Counted from the stretch's first letter, positions 2,497-10,271 are shown. The stretch: DNA of 10,271 nucleotides from a virus (IMGVR_UViG_2917855067_000001:1-10271); one strand, 5' to 3'. Made by a program: numbers and translations. The notes: generated by a model from the letters alone, not told the origin.

Positions 2497-2526
2497 AGGA
2501 AAGAAAAAAGGGGCGAATGCCCCTTA
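2497..2526 (-). terminator. Rho-independent terminator directly after the c2 stop codon
   Basis: On the minus strand, hairpin GGGGC-attc-GCCCC (plus 2510..2523) is followed by TTTTTTCTTTCC. Confidence 0.65.
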
Positions 2527-3174
2527 TGGAAGGTTTGCTATTTTTGCATCGACAACTACACCGATGATTTTGCAGTTCCCGTTGATCTCAATCATCGGAT
2601 ATTGTGGGTTAAGTGGTTTTAGAAACCTTCTGCCAGCATCAATAACTAACTTCTTGAAAGTTGCCTCGTTTTCTCCTTCGAGCTTTGCCACTACCAGCTT
2701 CCCATTACGAGGTTCTACTTCAGGATCGACTAGTATTATCATCCCTTCCGGGATGCTAAGACCGGCTGGAGCCGTCATCGAATCACCCTTTACGTCCAGC
2801 CAAAACGAATCTTCTGAACAATCTACGGTTGTATCGTACCAGTTATCTATTGCACGCTTATGATATGGCTCTACAGCTTCCATCCAACATCCTGCGCTTA
2901 CCCAACTAATTAGAGGATACGAACCTCTTGGATCATGCCTGCTGTGATAGGCAATGTTTGAAAGACTATCTTCTCCTTTCAACAAGTAATCAGGGGAGCA
3001 CTGCAAAGCCTTGGCTAAGGCCAATAGGTTTTCGCCATTGGGCTCAGTTTCAGAACGCTCCCATTGGGAAATAGCAACATTAGACACGCCAACCATCTTG
3101 CCAAGGGCAGCCTGCCTAATCTTGAGTTCTTTTCTGCGAGCGCGAATACGCTCACCCATCAGTTGTGTATTCAT
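2524..3174 (-). CDS. c2: Prophage repressor, P22 C2-type (LexA/S24 peptidase family, lambda cI functional analogue)
   Basis: 216-aa ORF MNTQLMGERIRARRKELKIRQAALGKMVGVSNVAISQWERSETEPNGENLLALAKALQCSPDYLLKG..., near-identical to my recollection of P22 C2. N-terminal HTH and C-terminal S24 autocleavage domain (..GDSM.., ..KIIGVVV..). Divergent from cro across an operator-rich intergenic region. Confidence 0.92.
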   Translation of the reverse strand: MNTQLMGERIRARRKELKIRQAALGKMVGVSNVAISQWERSETEPNGENLLALAKALQCSPDYLLKGEDSLSNIAYHSRHDPRGSYPLISWVSAGCWMEAVEPYHKRAIDNWYDTTVDCSEDSFWLDVKGDSMTAPAGLSIPEGMIILVDPEVEPRNGKLVVAKLEGENEATFKKLVIDAGRRFLKPLNPQYPMIEINGNCKIIGVVVDAKIANLP

Positions 3175-3861: not shown

Positions 3862-4023
3862 ATGACAAAACGTCGTAAGAAATACCAGGAAAAAGAAGAG
3901 ATTCGACACCCTGATTCACCTGAGGGATTAGTGGTAGCCGCAGCAAATAACAGGGCGTTCGCAGAGCGCCTTGTTGGTGTTTACAGACTAGCCAAAGCAG
4001 GAGTGAAACATGGGCGTCGTTAA
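3862..4023 (+). CDS. Hypothetical small basic protein between c1 and the O-like gene
   Basis: ATG at 3862 preceded by AGGAG at a good spacing. Product [53 protein letters not shown]. Its 3' end overlaps the O-like start by 14 nt. No family recognised. Confidence 0.4.
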   Translation: MTKRRKKYQEKEEIRHPDSPEGLVVAAANNRAFAERLVGVYRLAKAGVKHGRR

Positions 4024-4831
4024 GTTAGCTGATTACAGGCCTCAACTGGAGGTCGTGGAGCATCGCGTGGCAGATACCGAAGATGGTTTCATGCGCGTTG
4101 CTAACGAGATTACCGACAGTCTGCTGATGGCTGATTTAACCGTCCGGCAGTTGAAGGTGATGCTCGCTATCATGCGCAAGACATACGGATTCAATAAGCC
4201 GATGGATCGACTCACAAACACGCAGATAGCAGCCATGACAGGTATTCATCACACTCATGTTTGCGCTGCCAAGCGCCAGCTTATTGAGCGTAAATTCCTC
4301 ATTGCTGATGGCGTGAAAATCGGAGTGAACAAGGTGGTTTCTCAGTGGATTAGCCAGGACAGCTTAACATTAGCTAAAACAGCTAATAAAACATTAGCCA
4401 AGTCGGCTAATGGGTATAAGCCAAGTCAGCTAAACACAAAAGACAATATACAAAAGACAATAAATACAAATACCCCCTTACCCCCTAACGGGGGCGGCGA
4501 TGGGCAGGTTAAACCTGAACGTCGCAAGGCAGAACGAATCGACTACGAATCCTTCCTGAACGCCTACAACACCGAAGTCGGTGACAGACTGCCACACGCT
4601 GTTGCGGTCAACGAGAAACGCAAACGTCGCCTGAAGAAAATCATCCCGCAACTGAAAACGCCAAACGTGGACGGTTTCAGAGCGTATGTCAGGGCGTTTG
4701 TGCATCAGGCCAAGCCGTTTTACTTCGGAGACAACGACACGGGCTGGACGGCCGATTTTGATTACCTGCTGAGGGAAGACTCGTTAACGGGAGTACGGGA
4801 AGGGAAGTTTGCAGACAGGGGGATTGCATGA
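4010..4831 (+). CDS. Replication initiator, lambda O-like (P22 gene 18-type)
   Basis: 273-aa ORF with an N-terminal domain resembling lambda O (..[37 protein letters not shown]..). Iteron-like repeats and an AT-rich tract lie inside the gene, as for ori-lambda. AGGAG ribosome-binding site upstream. Stop overlaps the helicase start (ATGA). Confidence 0.85.
4350..4475. repeat. Origin-like iteron array plus AT-rich tract inside the O-like gene
   Basis: Four dyad-symmetric repeats of 17-18 bp spaced about 20-24 bp apart (TTAGCCAGGACAGCTTA, TTAGCTAAAACAGCTAA, TTAGCCAAGTCGGCTAA, TAAGCCAAGTCAGCTAA), followed by the A/T-rich run ACACAAAAGACAATATACAAAAGACAATAAATACAAATA and then a G/C palindrome CCCCC..GGGGG. 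Confidence 0.6.
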
Positions 4832-6204
4832 AACAGGATATCGAAGCGAGCGTTATCGGTGGCCTGCTGATTGGTGGATTAACACCAACCGCCAGCGACG
4901 TTCTGGCAACGCTGGAGCCGGAAGCGTTTTCAATTCCGCTCTACCGGAAAGCCTTCGAGGTTATCCGCAAGCAGGCGAGAAACAGAAACCTAATCGACGC
5001 GCTGATGGTTGCCGAGGCGTGCGGAGAGGAGCATTTCACGTCAATCCTGATGACCAGCAAAAACTGCCCGAGTGCCGCAAACCTGAAGGGATATGCCGGA
5101 ATGGTCGCGGATAACTATCACCGCCGTCTGGTGCTGGAAATCATGGATGAAATGCGTGAACCAATCCAAAGCGGAACCATCGACGCATCGAGTCAGGCGA
5201 TGGATGAACTTGTAAAACGGCTCTCAGCCATCAGAAAGCCCCGTGACGAGGTTAAACCTGTACGGTTAGGGGAAATCATCACTGACTACACTGACACGCT
5301 TGACAGGCGTCTGAGGAACGGAGAAGAGTCAGATACCCTGAAGACCGGAATCGAAGAACTTGACGCCATCACCGGAGGGATGAACGCGGAAGACCTGGTG
5401 ATTATCGCCGCTCGTCCTGGTATGGGGAAAACCGAACTGGCGCTGAAGATTGCCGAAGGCGTTGCAAGCCGCGTTATTCCTGGTTCTGACGTCCGGCGCG
5501 GAGTATTGATTTTCTCGATGGAAATGAGCGCATTGCAGATTGCAGAGCGAAGCATTGCCAACGCCGGGAGGATGTCGGTTAGCGTGCTGCGAAATCCTGC
5601 ATCGATGGATGACGAAGGCTGGGCGCGCGTTGCTAACGGCATGAGTCAGCTTGCAGATTTGGATGTATGGGTAGTCGATGCCTCGCGGTTATCTGTCGAA
5701 GAAATTCGCTCAATCGCAGAACGACACAAACAGGAAAATCCAAACCTGTCACTCATCATGGCGGATTATCTTGGCCTGATTGAGAAGCCGAAAGCAGACC
5801 GCAACGACCTCGCAATTGCTCACATCTCAGGAAGCCTTAAGGCGATGGCGAAAGACCTGAAAACGCCTGTTATCTCCCTAAGTCAGCTTTCACGCGATGT
5901 TGAGAAGCGACCAAACAAACGCCCGACAAACGCAGATTTGCGTGATTCAGGAAGCATTGAGCAGGACGCAGACTCAATCATCATGCTCTATCGGGAAGCG
6001 GTATATGACGAGAACAGTAGCGCCGCGCCATTTGCTGAAATCATCGTGACGAAAAACCGTTTTGGCTCACTTGGTACGGTTTACCAGCGGTTCTGTAACG
6101 GACACTTTGTTGCATGTGACCAGGATGAAGCCAGACAGATTTGCACAGCATCAAATGCACCTGCTGCGCGTGGCAGACGATATGCACAAGGGGCTGACGT
6201 ATGA
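4828..6204 (+). CDS. Replicative DNA helicase, DnaB family (P22 gene 12-type)
   Basis: 458-aa ORF with DnaB-like N-terminal domain and a Walker A motif ([15 protein letters not shown]). Translationally coupled to the O-like gene. Confidence 0.9.
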
Positions 6205-6281
6205 CCATCTACATCACTGAGCTAATAACAGGTCTGCTGGTAATCGCAGGCCTTTTTATTTGGGGGAGAGGGAAGTCATGA
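6201..6281 (+). CDS. Putative small hydrophobic peptide (26 aa)
   Basis: ATG 6201 overlaps the helicase stop (ATGA). Product [26 protein letters not shown] is a single hydrophobic helix. Its stop overlaps the ninB ATG. Not in the ORF track because it is below the length cutoff. Confidence 0.3.
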
Positions 6282-6766
6282 AAAAGCTAACCTTTGAAAT
6301 TCGATCTCCAGCACATCAGCAAAACGCTATTCACGCAGTACAGCAAATCCTTCCAGACCCAACCAAACCAATCGTAGTAACCATTCAGGAACGCAACCGC
6401 AGCTTAGACCAGAATCGAAAGCTTTGGGCTTGCCTTGGTGACGTCTCTCGTCAGGTTGAATGGCATGGTCGCTGGCTGGATGCAGAAAGCTGGAAGTGCG
6501 TTTTTACAGCAGCATTAAAGCAGCAGGACGTTGCTGAGGTAACAGGCGCAACAGTAACCAGCATAAATCAGGCTGCGGCTAAAATGGCGCGGGCAGGAAT
6601 CTTAGTCATTGATGGTAAGGTCTGGCGAACGGTGTATTACCGGTTCGCTACCAGGGAAGAACGGGAAGGAAAGGTGAGCACGAATCTGATTTTCAAGGAG
6701 TGTCGCCAGAGTGCCGCGATGAAGCGGGTTTTATTTGTTTATGCGGCGGGGGGAGGAAATCAGTGA
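6278..6766 (+). CDS. ninB: NinB/Orf-family protein (recombination mediator) with divergent C-terminal half
   Basis: From ATG 6278 (Shine-Dalgarno GGGGGAGAGGG upstream), the first ~87 residues [85 protein letters not shown] match recalled lambda NinB. The remainder (AEVTGATVTSINQAAAKMARAG...) diverges from lambda but keeps a family-like pattern. Confidence 0.75.
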   Translation: MKKLTFEIRSPAHQQNAIHAVQQILPDPTKPIVVTIQERNRSLDQNRKLWACLGDVSRQVEWHGRWLDAESWKCVFTAALKQQDVAEVTGATVTSINQAAAKMARAGILVIDGKVWRTVYYRFATREEREGKVSTNLIFKECRQSAAMKRVLFVYAAGGGNQ

Positions 6767-6768
6767 GG

Positions 6769-6798
6769 TTGACGATAACTAATATCTGGCGCTATATT
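6769..6798 (+). promoter_or_regulatory. Sigma70-like promoter candidate just after ninB
   Basis: TTGACG (6769..6774), 18-bp spacer, TATATT (6793..6798). Motif match only. Confidence 0.3.
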
Positions 6799-6861
6799 CT
6801 GTGCGTTGCCGCAAAATCGGCACACGGGATTGGCGTCCCGGATAAGGTAATCGCGACTACT

Positions 6862-6887
6862 ACACGCCGCGAGCGTGTTTTTTATTG
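6862..6887 (+). terminator. Rho-independent terminator candidate
   Basis: Hairpin ACACGC-cgcga-GCGTGT (6862..6878) followed by TTTTTTATTG. Confidence 0.55.
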
Positions 6888-6923
6888 TCGTAAGCATACG
6901 CACATCTGAATTATGGTGGGGCG

Positions 6924-7017
6924 TGTAGGGCCGACTTCGGTCGGGCCGGTTGATTACCCCGGTTACGCCAACCCTACATGTCTCACCACCAAACTGATTG
7001 GCGTCAGCGGTGGTGGT
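6924..7017. repeat. Cluster of GC-rich palindromes (structured element upstream of the Bro-N gene)
   Basis: TGTAGGG (6924..6930) pairs with CCCTACA (6972..6978). Inside: a hairpin GGCC-GAC-ttcg-GTC-g-GGCC with a UUCG-type loop (6929..6947), then GGTTG...CAACC (6948..6973), then CCACCACC-loop-GGTGGTGG (about 6984..7016). Nature unknown. Confidence 0.35.
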
Positions 7018-7041
7018 TAACTTGATTTATAGGTAATCATC

Positions 7042-7647
7042 ATGAGCACACAACTAGTCTTTCATCAAACAAAATTCCATCCTGTTAAACACAACAACAG
7101 TATCTGGCTTACTGCCGTTGAGATTGCTCAAGCTCTCGGATATAAAAAATCTGATGCCGTAACTCAGATCTACGATCGAAATTCCGATGAATTTAGGGCA
7201 GATATGACTGAGACCCTCAATTTGAGTGTCTCAGGGAACTACCAGAAAACAATACGCATTTTCTCCCTCCGTGGTGCCCATTTGATCGCTATGTTCGCCC
7301 GCACTCCTGTAGCCAAAGAATTCCGCCGCTGGGTTCTGGATATTCTCGATCGAGAAGTTCAACAATCCCCAATCACAAAACAATTCACTGATAACGAACT
7401 TTGCACACTCGCCTGGTTATGGCGAGCAGGGGATGTGATGTTAACCGCCTGCCAGAATGTTACTCCACTTCTTCAGGTTGCGGAGCATCGCGAAGCCGGT
7501 CGCTTTACTTCTATTGAGCAAGAATATCCCCAGATACTACATAAGGCGCGCGAAATCCTTGCCAGAGAAACGGCACATGTAAGATTCCAGCCGTGGCAGG
7601 ATGATAAGTGGAGCCGAGTATTGCCGCATTTGCGTTCTGAGCAGTAG
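7042..7647 (+). CDS. Bro-N domain protein (antirepressor / Roi-like family)
   Basis: 201-aa ORF. The N-terminal ~105 aa carry Bro-N-like motifs (..SIWLTAVEIAQALGY.. and ..IRIFSLRGAHLIAMFARTPVAKEFRRWVLDIL..). The C-terminal half is unassigned. Confidence 0.7.
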   Translation: MSTQLVFHQTKFHPVKHNNSIWLTAVEIAQALGYKKSDAVTQIYDRNSDEFRADMTETLNLSVSGNYQKTIRIFSLRGAHLIAMFARTPVAKEFRRWVLDILDREVQQSPITKQFTDNELCTLAWLWRAGDVMLTACQNVTPLLQVAEHREAGRFTSIEQEYPQILHKAREILARETAHVRFQPWQDDKWSRVLPHLRSEQ

Positions 7648-7828
7648 CAATAAAGTTTCCGGTGAGAAATGTCACCAGCATTTTGTTATGAAACGGGTAT
7701 TGGCGGTATATGGGGGCGGGGCTTTAGTTATTAGGTGTCGAGAATTAATTGTTTGTAGCAATATAAAAAGGAGCGCTTAAGTCCGTTTATTTTTTTTAAG
7801 CTTCATATACATAGTGGATAAAAATGAG

Positions 7829-7853
7829 AACCACCCGCTGAACGGGTGGTTTT
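7829..7853. terminator. Terminator hairpin between convergent genes (possibly bidirectional)
   Basis: AACCACCCG-ctgaa-CGGGTGGTT followed by TTTT on the plus strand; the complement is followed by a T-rich tract on the minus strand. It lies between the Bro-N gene end (7647) and the orphan gene end (7928). Confidence 0.6.
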
Positions 7854-7927
7854 GCGCAAGTTAAATTTTATAATTTCAGTGAATCTTTACGCTGTAATAA
7901 TGCAAATGATAGTTGAAAAAAACACAA

Positions 7928-8605
7928 TCAGTCGATGGATTCTCCGTAGGATGCAACTGCCTGAGCGACGCAAAAACGATCAATACACTCTATTTCTCCA
8001 TAATCACGCAGGCAATAATAAGTATTATTGTCTTTATCAAAAGCGTAAATGCTACAAATACCCTCAAGCTCACAACTTGCGTCCCATCCACTATTAGATA
8101 ACGTGCCCCATTCCTGGTAAAGCCCTGCGTTAACTTCTCGATTGATAATATGCGGTCCACTATAGTTATCATAATCGTAACTATAGATGTCACGTGCCTC
8201 AGGAAAATTCCCGTTCATGTTTTCAATCCACGGTAAAATATCTTTAACTGAGTTATAAAGTTCAATGCTGTATTTGAAAAAACGCTTCACAATAAAAACA
8301 TAGATGCCGGCAGATTTGTTTGTTGATTTATCAGTGGCGAAAATGACAAAAATCTTCCCAACGCACTTTTCATCTACGCCCGGAAAAGTTACTGTGCCAT
8401 CCTGGCTAACCGCCAGAACATTATTGTCTGCATTAGTGCTACAGGTCCATTTTACCTTGTCATTATTAATAGGGTCATTATCAATGACCATCTTGAAGGT
8501 TGCTCCTGGGAACAAACTGTTAGGGAAACAGTAACCACTCTCCATATCATTTTTAATATCATAGATATGGCTATCAACTAACACGCCTGTAATTTTGCTC
8601 ATCAT
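7928..8605 (-). CDS. Orphan AT-rich hypothetical protein (moron candidate), opposite strand to the phage early operon
   Basis: Long open frame on the minus strand within visibly AT-rich DNA, where long chance ORFs are unlikely. Probable start is ATG-ATG at 8605/8602 with AGAGAG upstream, giving MMSKITGVLVDSHIYDIKNDMESGYCFPNSLFPG... of about 225 aa (the track's TTG start at 8650 is less likely). Cys- and Asp/Asn/Tyr-rich C-terminal part, no obvious signal peptide. No family recognised. Confidence 0.6.
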   Translation of the reverse strand: MMSKITGVLVDSHIYDIKNDMESGYCFPNSLFPGATFKMVIDNDPINNDKVKWTCSTNADNNVLAVSQDGTVTFPGVDEKCVGKIFVIFATDKSTNKSAGIYVFIVKRFFKYSIELYNSVKDILPWIENMNGNFPEARDIYSYDYDNYSGPHIINREVNAGLYQEWGTLSNSGWDASCELEGICSIYAFDKDNNTYYCLRDYGEIECIDRFCVAQAVASYGESID

Positions 8606-9018
8606 TGAACTCTCTTTGTTTGTTAAATAAAAAGTTTTATTCCTGAACAACGGAACACGCTGATATTAATGCAGCCAATGAATTGTTGTTGTTATTTGGA
8701 GGTTATATAGTGGTATGAATGTTATTATGCGATGTCTCTGAGTGATGGGGTAAGGATTATATGATTCGCTTTTGAGATTTACCTATGTCAGGCGTTGCTG
8801 TTCATGTTCGTCCCCGTTGTCAGTCTTCTTAGTCTGAGCTAATGTCATCATCAATGGGTTATCAGTTTTCTCTGAAGTTATATAATTAATTGAGCGCCAT
8901 AGCACCATGGGGCATTGTTGAATTTCATCTTCAATTGATTTTCCATAATCAACTCGCCATAATCATGTCATCGGAGCCTGAACACCTCCGGTGACTTCTG
9001 CGCTAAACGGGGACGTTT

Positions 9019-9120
9019 ATGCGCACACACAATCTAAACTCTCTTCTCCCTTCACAGATGCAGAAATGCACCTGCGATTTTTTGCATCCAACGTTTGACC
9101 TCTGCGGAGGTGAAGCGTGA
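9019..9120 (+). CDS. ylcH: Small ORF, ylcH-like (33 aa)
   Basis: ATG 9019 to TGA 9118..9120 gives [33 protein letters not shown]. Its stop overlaps the ybcN GTG start, the position ylcH holds upstream of ybcN in DLP12. Sequence match to ylcH is not verified. Confidence 0.35.
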
Positions 9121-9572
9121 ACCTCCCACAAGACGGCATCAAATTACATCGCGGCAACTTCACCGCTATCGGTCAGCAGATCCAGCCTTATCTGGAGGAT
9201 GGCAAATGCTTTCGCATGGTGCTTAAACCGTGGCGCGAGAGACGCAGTCTTTCCCAGAATGCACTCAGCCACATGTGGTACAGCGAAATCAGTGAGTACC
9301 TCATCAGCAGGGGTAAAACGTTCGCTACTGCAGTATGGGTAAAAGATGCACTCAAACACACATACCTCGGTTATGAAACCAAGGACCTGGTTGATGTCGT
9401 AACCGGCGAAATCACTACGATCCAGTCGTTACGCCATACCTCCGATCTTGATACCGGAGAGATGTATGTCTTCCTGTGTAAGGTTGAAGCCTGGGCGATG
9501 AATATTGGCTGCCACCTGACTATTCCGCAGAGCTGCGAGTTCCAGCTGCTGCGCGACAAGCAGGAGGCGTAA
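9117..9572 (+). CDS. ybcN: YbcN-like protein (DLP12-type; Orf/NinB-family, reported base-flipping protein)
   Basis: 151-aa ORF from GTG 9117 with GGAGG 6 nt upstream: [67 protein letters not shown]..., matching recalled E. coli YbcN. Confidence 0.85.
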
Positions 9573-9742
9573 TGGCTACACCGCTTATTCGTGTCATGAG
9601 CGGACACATCTACAGAGTACCAAATCGTCGTAAGCGTAAGCCTGAGCTGAAACCATCCGAAATACCAACACTGCTCGGATATACCGCCAGCCTGGTTGAT
9701 AAAAAATGGTTGCGACTGGCAGCAAGGAGGAATCATGGCTGA
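9572..9742 (+). CDS. ninE: NinE
   Basis: 56-aa [59 protein letters not shown]. Its start overlaps the ybcN stop (TAATG). Matches recalled NinE. Confidence 0.85.
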   Translation: MATPLIRVMSGHIYRVPNRRKRKPELKPSEIPTLLGYTASLVDKKWLRLAARRNHG

Positions 9743-10025
9743 TTTGAGAAAAGCAGCGCGTGGTCGGGAATGCCAGGTAAGAATCCCTGGCGTATGTAAT
9801 GGCAATCCTGAAACGTCTGTACTGGCACATATCCGGCTGGCTGGATTGTGCGGTACCGGTATCAAACCGCCAGACCTGATTGCCACCATTGCATGTTCTG
9901 CCTGTCACGACGAAATCGACCGCCGCACACATTTTGTCGATGCTGAGTATGCAAAAGAATGCGCGCTGGAAGATATGGCGAGAACGCAGGTTATCTGGCT
10001 GAAAGAGGGGGTAATCAAGGCGTGA
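9735..10025 (+). CDS. ybcO: YbcO-like protein (DUF1364; putative nuclease, Cys-rich)
   Basis: ATG 9735 with AGGAGG upstream, inside the 9696..10025 track ORF. 96-aa product [64 protein letters not shown]... matches recalled YbcO. Confidence 0.85.
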
Positions 10026-10258
10026 ATACTTACTACATCACACTACCCTGGCCGCCGAGCAATAACCGCTACTACCGCCATAATCGCGGGCGCACGCACA
10101 TCAGCGCAGAGGGGCAGGTATACCGCGATAACGTCGCCCGAATCATCAAAGGCTCCATGCTGGATATCGGTCTGGCTATGCCAGTGAAATCCGTATTGAC
10201 GTGCCACATGCCGGATCGCCGTCGCCGTGACCTGGATAATCTGCAAAAGCAGCTTTGA
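10022..10258 (+). CDS. rusA: RusA-like Holliday junction resolvase, frame ends prematurely relative to canonical RusA
   Basis: GTG 10022 overlaps the ybcO stop (GTGA). Product [76 protein letters not shown] matches recalled RusA up to ..DNLQK, then reads QL-stop. RusA-like sequence (DALNQ) continues in another frame to the window end. Confidence 0.7.
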
Positions 10259-10271
10259 CGCACTCAACCAA

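Follow-up and report, generated by a model that had tools for sequence, protein, structure and literature searches.

The nested palindromes at positions 6924-7017 of the window (the whole 10,271-nt stretch of viral DNA analysed here) very probably constitute a gene for an antisense RNA of the C4 family, read from the + strand. We hold with the same high confidence that this C4 element sits in an isrK-C4-antirepressor module of a lambdoid Escherichia prophage. It most likely represents a known family with a known mechanism, namely an antisense block of antirepressor translation that is countered by an IsrK-like decoy RNA. The window itself corresponds to the immunity, replication and nin genes of a lambdoid prophage and encodes an S24 CI-type repressor (2524-3174), O, a DnaB-like helicase, NinB and a RusA-like protein. 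Positions 4474-10271 match contig NZ_RHJI01000023 of Escherichia sp. E1V33 at 99.2% identity, and positions 6523-8908 match an IMG/VR contig at 99.8% identity.

When the whole window was scanned against Rfam, two matches exceeded the curated cut-offs, C4 and isrK, both on the + strand. An Rfam scan had been proposed in an earlier note on this DNA, which was made from the sequence alone. The C4 antisense RNA model (RF01695) matched 6909-6993 over its full length (model positions 1-87) with 74.2 bits (cut-off 45, E = 2e-13), and one copy of C4 was found in the window. The predicted mature RNA has 76 nt (6915-6990, + strand), its ends being derived from the alignment to the annotated 77-nt c4 RNA of phage P1. 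It is closed by a 17-bp stem (6914-6930/6972-6988) that encloses two hairpins. Hairpin 1 (6931-6944) has the sequence CCGAC-TTCG-GTCGG with a UUCG loop. In hairpin 2 (6945-6963) GCCGG (6945-6949) pairs with CCGGU (6959-6963) around the loop UUGAUUACC, and this helix is present in the Rfam family consensus as well as in the minimum-energy fold. After the closing stem a 3' tail, A-CC(A), is found at 6988-6991. At the predicted 5' end, G6915, the sequence AU|GG is the same as at the annotated 5' end of P1 c4; an RNase P-type cut between U6914 and G6915 is predicted by analogy, with C6990 as the 3' end. Despite its resemblance to a tRNA acceptor, the stem is not that of a tRNA gene, because ARAGORN found no tRNA or tmRNA.

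Folding of 6915-6991 gave -42.8 kcal/mol (z -4.5, with 0 of 200 shuffles as good), and the longer segment 6909-7045 gave z -4.2. The 94-nt segment 6924-7017, for which a comparison with shuffled controls had been suggested, comprises the inner two thirds of the C4 fold together with a conserved downstream hairpin. For its + strand the z score was only -2.2, with 6 of 200 shuffles folding just as well, and for its - strand -3.5; the fold signal is weak because the segment cuts a larger unit.

All four complementarities named in the earlier note are in the sequence: TGTAGGG (6924-6930) with CCCTACA (6972-6978), the two arms of hairpin 1, GGTTG (6948-6952) with CAACC (6969-6973), and 6983-6990 with 7009-7016. 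Their arrangement differs in part from what was described there. The outer pairing is present, but its stem is 17 bp long and not 7, ten pairs having been cut off. GGTTG and CAACC are indeed complementary; the family helix, however, is GCCGG/CCGGU, and CAACC lies in the recognition segment a' (see below) and at the base of the outer stem. In the last stem, TCACCACC (6983-6990) does pair with GGTGGTGG (7009-7016), but it does not simply follow the outer stem as a neighbour. The CCACCACC/GGTGGTGG stem shares 6983-6988 with the closing stem, and the two are therefore alternative helices in the unprocessed transcript.

The C4 RNA was searched for complementarity to its flanks, and two segments were found, each with one upstream and one downstream partner on the + strand. 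Segment a' (6965-6971, ACGCCAA) is single-stranded and is the perfect 7-nt complement of two identical sites of sequence UUGGCGU, a1 (6830-6836) and a2 (6998-7004). Segment b' (6951-6958, UGAUUACC) lies in the loop of hairpin 2. It forms an 8-nt pairing with one G.U with b1 (6846-6853, GGUAAUCG), and b2 (7032-7039, GGUAAUCA) is its perfect 8-nt complement. Site b2 covers part of the Shine-Dalgarno-like AGGU (7031-7034), and 2 nt separate its end from the ATG at 7042. In the full read-through RNA, folding predicts that a1/b1 pair with a'/b' in cis. RNAcofold of the mature C4 RNA with the downstream targets gave no net gain, in a program that cannot represent loop-loop pairing with the stems intact.

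The ATG at 7042 opens an antirepressor-like gene (7042-7647, + strand) for a protein of 201 aa with Bro-N and P22_AR_C domains (Pfam PF02498, 1.9e-13, and PF10548, 1.7e-15). The protein also matches PHROG 'anti-repressor Ant' families, down to 4e-52. The earlier proposal of a structured RNA or regulatory leader for the Bro-N gene was essentially right: the structure is a C4-family antisense RNA, and its loop sequence complements the stretch around the Shine-Dalgarno sequence of the gene.

Between the C4 RNA and this gene lies a two-tier hairpin (6983-7016, + strand) with arms UCACCACC/GGUGGUGG and an inner CUGA/UCAG helix, which presents a2 at its tip. The 5' arm of this hairpin is the 3' end of the C4 RNA. 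It was also considered as an intrinsic terminator, which was rejected in a terminator scan of 6600-7800, as it has no U-run and is followed by the tail UUAACUUGAUUU. The sequence GGUGGUGGUU (7009-7018), freed once the C4 3' end is removed, is predicted to pair around the antirepressor start, at approximately 7033-7043. Such pairing might be a second way in which the start site is occluded.

Upstream of the C4 RNA the window contains an IsrK-like leader or small RNA (6807-6884, + strand), with a match to isrK (RF01394), a family of Hfq-binding small RNAs, at 6807-6883 of 61.2 bits (cut-off 50). It comprises hairpin 1 (6808-6821), hairpin 2 (6825-6840) with a1 in its loop, and an intrinsic terminator (6862-6878) followed by a U-run to approximately 6883. 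Both upstream target copies, a1 and b1, are carried by this RNA. A sensitive Rfam scan also gave c4-a1b1 (RF03163) at 6792-6844 with 41.9 bits, below its cut-off of 46.7, and the isrK model, which covers the same stretch, passes its own cut-off. A promoter-like site, TTGACG-18 nt-TATATT with 10 of 12 matches, is located at 6769-6798 (+ strand) and is the only such site in 6600-7800. It predicts a transcription start at approximately 6805-6807, and 6807 is the first base of the isrK model. By analogy, it may act as a promoter like PisrK of Gifsy-1. The window RNA thus resembles isrK in its score, its own promoter-like site, its intrinsic terminator and its place upstream of a C4/orf45 element. 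Two GTG ORFs, one of 69 codons (6700-6909, + strand) and one of 47 codons (6760-6903, - strand), overlie the promoter, the IsrK-like RNA and the terminator. For the 69-codon ORF neither Pfam nor PHROGs gave a match, and it is most probably spurious.

A homologue search with a pattern comprising hairpin 2 and a' retrieved at least 120 viral contigs; as both elements were fixed by the pattern, neither could covary within the set. With a stricter DNA pattern that included the UUCG hairpin, only 2 viral contigs matched. For the structure 46 sequences were aligned: the window, Gifsy-1, P1 and 43 loci with distinct loops. In this alignment 91.3% of the cells were paired, against 77.3% in column shuffles and 39-51% when the partners were slid. 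Double changes were observed in 169 cells where 45.8 were expected, a number reached in 0 of 500 shuffles. Two-sided changes occurred in 12 of the 17 closing-stem pairs and in all 5 hairpin-1 pairs. A tally of pair types in the same alignment showed that approximately 16% of the paired cells were G.U. Such pairs would become A.C mismatches if the opposite strand folded or the DNA formed a cruciform, and they are therefore strand-specific evidence for a + strand RNA.

The b' loop covaries with its targets on both sides. This was determined for 104 non-identical loci on viral contigs, which together contain more than 50 different loop sequences. The longest perfect complement of the loop averaged 7.95 nt in its own downstream flank and 4.96 nt when loops were swapped; upstream the corresponding values were 7.04 and 5.01 nt. 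At these 104 loci the downstream complement was typically located on a GGA/GGAG-type Shine-Dalgarno sequence, approximately 50-58 nt past GCCAACC and a few to approximately 15 nt before an ATG. The upstream complement was typically found 90-100 nt before the search pattern, and up to approximately 140 nt before it in some loci. In the window the loop is of a rarely sampled type: UGAUUACC was found in only 1 of 185,579 species-representative genomes.

The surroundings of the element are conserved as well: in all 46 homologues an a1 site precedes it and an a2 hairpin follows it. The hairpin was predicted in every member of a set made up of the window, Gifsy-1 and 44 distinct-loop loci, from which P1 was left out; TTGGC is at its loop, and its arms change along with the 3' strand of C4. 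In most homologues the b2 site is at the start of the next gene. For 34 homologous loci the next genes encoded Bro-N (7), Rha (6), ORF6N (6) or P22_AR_C (4) proteins, the rest being short ORFs.

These data bear directly on the idea that the palindromes are a REP-like or small mobile element (a dispersed REP/BIME- or MITE-like palindrome), or a protein-bound DNA palindrome that marks a recombination junction. The GC-rich nested inverted repeats, the - strand that also folds well (z -3.5) and a mosaic junction nearby, where similarity to ninB ends near 6730, would agree with such an origin. Nevertheless, it is highly improbable. The element is present once in the window, and the search for dispersal among enterobacterial genomes showed a match in 814 of 5426 complete E. 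coli genomes, in which the median number of places was one and the highest four; 1116 of the 1118 places were chromosomal. This copy number and the constant context, in which all 46 homologues keep the same flanks and the same orientation to the next gene, exclude a repeat of the REP or MITE kind. Against a DNA site bound by protein stand the matches to curated Rfam RNA families, which are on the + strand only, the G.U content and the compensatory changes, which preserve pairing of the + strand RNA. As to a marker of a recombination junction, the palindromes belong to the inserted module itself, and the junction lies approximately 60-180 nt upstream of them.

In the mechanism that we propose, transcription would start near 6805 from the promoter at approximately 6769-6798. 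Most transcripts would end at the terminator (6862-6884) and yield an IsrK-like small RNA of approximately 77-80 nt with a1 and b1, while read-through transcripts would run through the C4 fold into the antirepressor gene. From these the C4 fold would be excised, the 5' cut being made by RNase P at U6914/G6915 as in P1, to give an RNA of approximately 76 nt whose stem resembles a tRNA acceptor and whose tail is ACC(A). Its a' segment would pair with a2 in the hairpin loop, and b' would then pair with b2 over the Shine-Dalgarno sequence of the Bro-N/P22_AR_C gene. Translation of the antirepressor would thereby be blocked and lysogeny stabilised. The a1 and b1 sites of the IsrK-like RNA would bind a' and b', in cis while still part of the precursor or in trans once released as a small RNA, and so lift repression by acting as a decoy. 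This scheme takes transcription, processing and the direction of regulation from P1 and Gifsy-1. That the C4-type RNA masks the ribosome-binding site of the antirepressor and the IsrK-like decoy activates it is, as far as the analogy carries, the probable direction of regulation.

A 35-codon ORF (6913-7020, + strand, AUG at 6913, UAA at 7018-7020) lies over the C4 RNA and is the positional counterpart of Gifsy-1 orf45. The region could be mainly a uORF leader, in which, along the lines proposed for Gifsy-1 orf45, translation of this ORF opens the structure and activates the antirepressor by coupling, the C4 RNA being an inert by-product of processing. We regard this as unlikely, although several data agree with it. 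AUGG is kept in 43 of 47 homologues, and of the three frames across C4 that of the AUG is open in 39 of 43, the other two in 30 and 29. In the work on Gifsy-1, stop mutations or start-codon mutations in orf45 lower IsrK-dependent translation of anrP, and IsrK promotes 30S binding at the orf45 ribosome-binding site (PMC4825925). P1 c4, however, is a proven non-coding repressor, in which RNase P cuts at this same AU|GG and the counterpart frame stops after 14 codons. Among homologues the ORF has anything between 5 and more than 100 codons and ends at widely differing points, and in the window it ends 21 nt short of the antirepressor ATG, without overlap. According to a review of the Gifsy-1 work the nucleotide sequence of orf45 is conserved but the peptide is variable (PMC12197685). 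Furthermore, coding leaves the co-variation of the hairpin-2 loop with the Shine-Dalgarno sequence of the next gene unexplained. Translation of the ORF could coexist with the antisense mechanism as an added layer, and it is a possibility that the C4-type RNA is also translated through this ORF and hence has a dual function.

It is equally doubtful that the C4-like RNA works mainly as P4 CI does, by ending transcription prematurely (either at the IsrK terminator or at the a2 hairpin), and not by masking the ribosome-binding site. In P1, Rho-dependent termination is said to occur as a consequence of the translation block, which would fit a part for termination. The authors of the Gifsy-1 study raised termination for STnc1160, noting the likeness of IsrK to P4 seqA, and in the experiments reported there IsrK lifts transcription of an anrP fusion 8-fold besides raising its translation 139-fold (PMC4825925). 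However, in the window and in most homologues b2 is located exactly on the Shine-Dalgarno sequence, which points to translation as the primary target, and the a2 hairpin is without a U-run. In Gifsy-1, constitutive STnc1160 did not lessen the IsrK-mediated growth arrest (PMC4825925). We retain the antisense block with an IsrK-like decoy as the main mechanism and treat P4-like termination and purely uORF-based control as minor or complementary possibilities.

Among the approximately 120 viral contigs there are more than 50 different b' loops, each matched by its own flanks. One contig (L045) carries two isrK-C4-antirepressor modules 3.2 kb apart (approximately 3960-4230 and 7220-7490). Both have the same a sites (UUGGCGU/ACGCCAA), and their b' loops, UUUCCGUAC and AUGUUUCGA, are each matched by their own b1 and b2. 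These tandem sequences suggest that the b site sets the specificity of a module. Because of the loop diversity with matched flanks, the tandem modules and the rarely sampled UGAUUACC type, we tentatively consider the b' loop with its matched b1 and b2 as a diversified RNA 'address' that prevents cross-talk between co-resident antirepressor modules. If true, this would be a broad extension of the heteroimmunity of P1 and P7.

The element is nothing new in kind: a routine Rfam scan labels it, its architecture has been studied in P1 and Gifsy-1, and the mechanism class is unchanged by the present results. What may be under-appreciated is the breadth of the b' diversity with matched targets, and the equivalence of IsrK to a1b1 and of orf45/STnc1160 to c4. 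In practice, where a lambdoid prophage has such intergenic palindromes ahead of a Bro-N/antirepressor gene, they are to be considered regulatory RNA genes rather than repeats or junk. C4 loci are usually unannotated in genome records, the annotation under most matches being 'none'.

With respect to its genomic setting, the isrK-C4-antirepressor-cargo block is at a mosaic junction and not within a duplication. The NinB gene at 6260-6766 is of the lambda type, with 94-96% DNA identity to lambdoid ninB up to approximately 6730, where this similarity ends. The block is flanked by this gene and by a second gene of the NinB/Orf family (9117-9572), which is of the PRK09741/phrog_72 type. A recent duplication of ninB around the module was considered and rejected, since the two NinB-family proteins are unrelated by BLASTP (E = 1); long direct repeats around the module were not found. 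Directly after the antirepressor gene an AT-rich block is present (7650-9050, 35-40% GC compared with approximately 50% around it). It carries an ORF of 240 aa on the - strand (7928-8650), for which Pfam gave no significant match (one weak, sub-threshold match, E 0.005) and PHROGs, PADLOC and NCBIfam gave none. PADLOC and NCBIfam also gave no match for the orphan ORFs near the module. ORF 7928-8650 looks like a putative moron or cargo gene.

Small RNAs that control antirepressors or the leader of their own transcript are known from several phages. The sar RNA of P22 is a true cis-antisense transcript, made from the opposite strand across the start of ant. The window RNA differs from it in being on the same strand as its target and in pairing by short dispersed sites. 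The two systems are alike in their targets: sar blocks translation of the ant (antirepressor) mRNA (reviewed in PMC12197685), and the window protein bears the C-terminal domain of the P22 antirepressor. The CI RNA of P4 is cut from the leader of the very transcript that it controls, as is proposed for the window RNA, and both have complementary sites upstream and downstream; unlike the window RNA, P4 CI acts (through seqA/seqC) by premature termination of transcription of replication genes and not at the ribosome-binding site of an antirepressor. A link to the 'microRNA-size' 24B_1 RNA of the Stx phage phi24B, said to control an antirepressor, was considered and rejected, as the lom-vb_24B_43 intergenic region that encodes it has no C4 or isrK match. 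In that phage positions 45636-45797 (HM208303) gave a sub-threshold sok match (38.4 bits, cut-off 59, E 7e-7), a hint that the lom-vb_24B_43 region may be a hok/sok-like locus.

A close likeness in organisation is seen with Gifsy-1, in which Rfam gave isrK (79.3 bits), C4 (69 bits) and c4-a1b1 (48.1 bits) between the Q-like antQ and anrP. Gifsy-1 and the window have the same three Rfam models in the same order and spacing, with 78.6% DNA identity over 220 nt, and share the IsrK-type terminator, the downstream hairpin and identical a1, a' and a2 sequences. The specificity of b differs: b' and its sites are UGAUUACC/GGUAAUCR in the window and UCGGUGAU/AUCACCGG in Gifsy-1, where UCGGUGAU complements AUCACCGG at the anrP Shine-Dalgarno sequence. 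The target gene is antirepressor-like in both, although AnrP is annotated only as similar to an antirepressor and the window protein has Bro-N and P22_AR_C domains. The overlapping ORF has 45 codons in Gifsy-1, with a stop codon that by our reading of the sequence overlaps the anrP AUG, and 35 codons in the window. The module is located after ninB in the window and after the Q-like antQ in Gifsy-1.

In Gifsy-1, according to the parts of the study by Hershko-Shalev et al. (2016, PMC4825925) that concern this locus, the short IsrK ends at its terminator, the read-through isrK-orf45-anrP mRNA is translationally silent, and IsrK in trans activates that mRNA more than 100-fold. A stable processed RNA, STnc1160, is present downstream of IsrK, and compensatory mutations connect IsrK G28/G31 with orf45 C162/C159. 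We found that G28/G31 map to a1 (UUGGCGU) and C159/C162 to a' (ACGCCAA), both of which are identical in the window. The predicted cis pairing of a1/b1 with a'/b' in the window resembles 'structure A' described for Gifsy-1 in the same study (PMC4825925). Control was explained there by translation of orf45, which is needed for translation of anrP, together with coupling, and the authors reported no structural change at the anrP ribosome-binding site (PMC4825925); this account differs from a simple block of the ribosome-binding site by b'-b2 pairing. The authors liken the system to P4 CI RNA, and in the passages concerned a link to P1 c4 is not drawn (PMC4825925); it is the Rfam models that make this link.

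The GenBank record of P1 annotates a1, b1, the 77-nt c4 RNA, a2 and b2, followed by icd and ant1/ant2. The window aligns to this immI region, and the order a1-b1-c4-a2-b2 on one strand and the fold of the RNA are common to both. The 18 nt around the mature 5' end of P1 c4, GAAUUAUGGUGGGGCGUG (GAAUUAU|GGUGGGGCGUG), are identical in the window, and the RNA has a predicted 76 nt in the window and an annotated 77 nt in P1. Where the two systems differ in their recognition segments, the changes are mutually compensating: a' is CUGUCAA with UUGACAG as a1/a2 in P1, and ACGCCAA with UUGGCGU in the window; b' is UCACUAAC with b1/b2 GUUAGUGC/GUUAGUGA in P1, and UGAUUACC in the window. Hairpin 2 is GCUGG/CCAGU in P1 and GCCGG/CCGGU in the window, with both sides changed. 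By eye, the 3' end of P1 c4 and the sequence downstream of it also form a hairpin with a2 in the loop. In both, b2 is at the ribosome-binding site of the next gene and the operon ends in an antirepressor.

The two systems differ in their setting, a nin region of a lambdoid prophage in the window and a plasmid prophage in P1, and no C1 operator is known at the window promoter, unlike in P1. They also differ in the ORF that is regulated, which would be the antirepressor itself in the window and is the small icd, ahead of ant1/ant2, in P1. Biere, Citron and Schuster are said to have found in 1992 that the translation block in P1 leads secondarily to Rho-dependent termination. Since in the window C4 is followed by the antirepressor gene without an intervening icd-like ORF, the P1 route, in which a block of icd is followed by Rho-dependent termination before ant, is not literally transferable. 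The papers on P1 c4 from 1992-1995 reportedly offer a further basis for the transcription, the RNase P processing and the regulatory outcome that we assume by analogy. For P1 this analogy goes back to Citron & Schuster (1990).

Judged by sequence, the comparison would join two literatures, with IsrK corresponding to the a1b1 leader of P1 c4 and orf45/STnc1160 to c4 itself; a review of phage small RNAs treats them separately (PMC12197685). This equivalence predicts that b'-b2 pairing masks the antirepressor ribosome-binding site in Gifsy-type and Stx-type prophages too.
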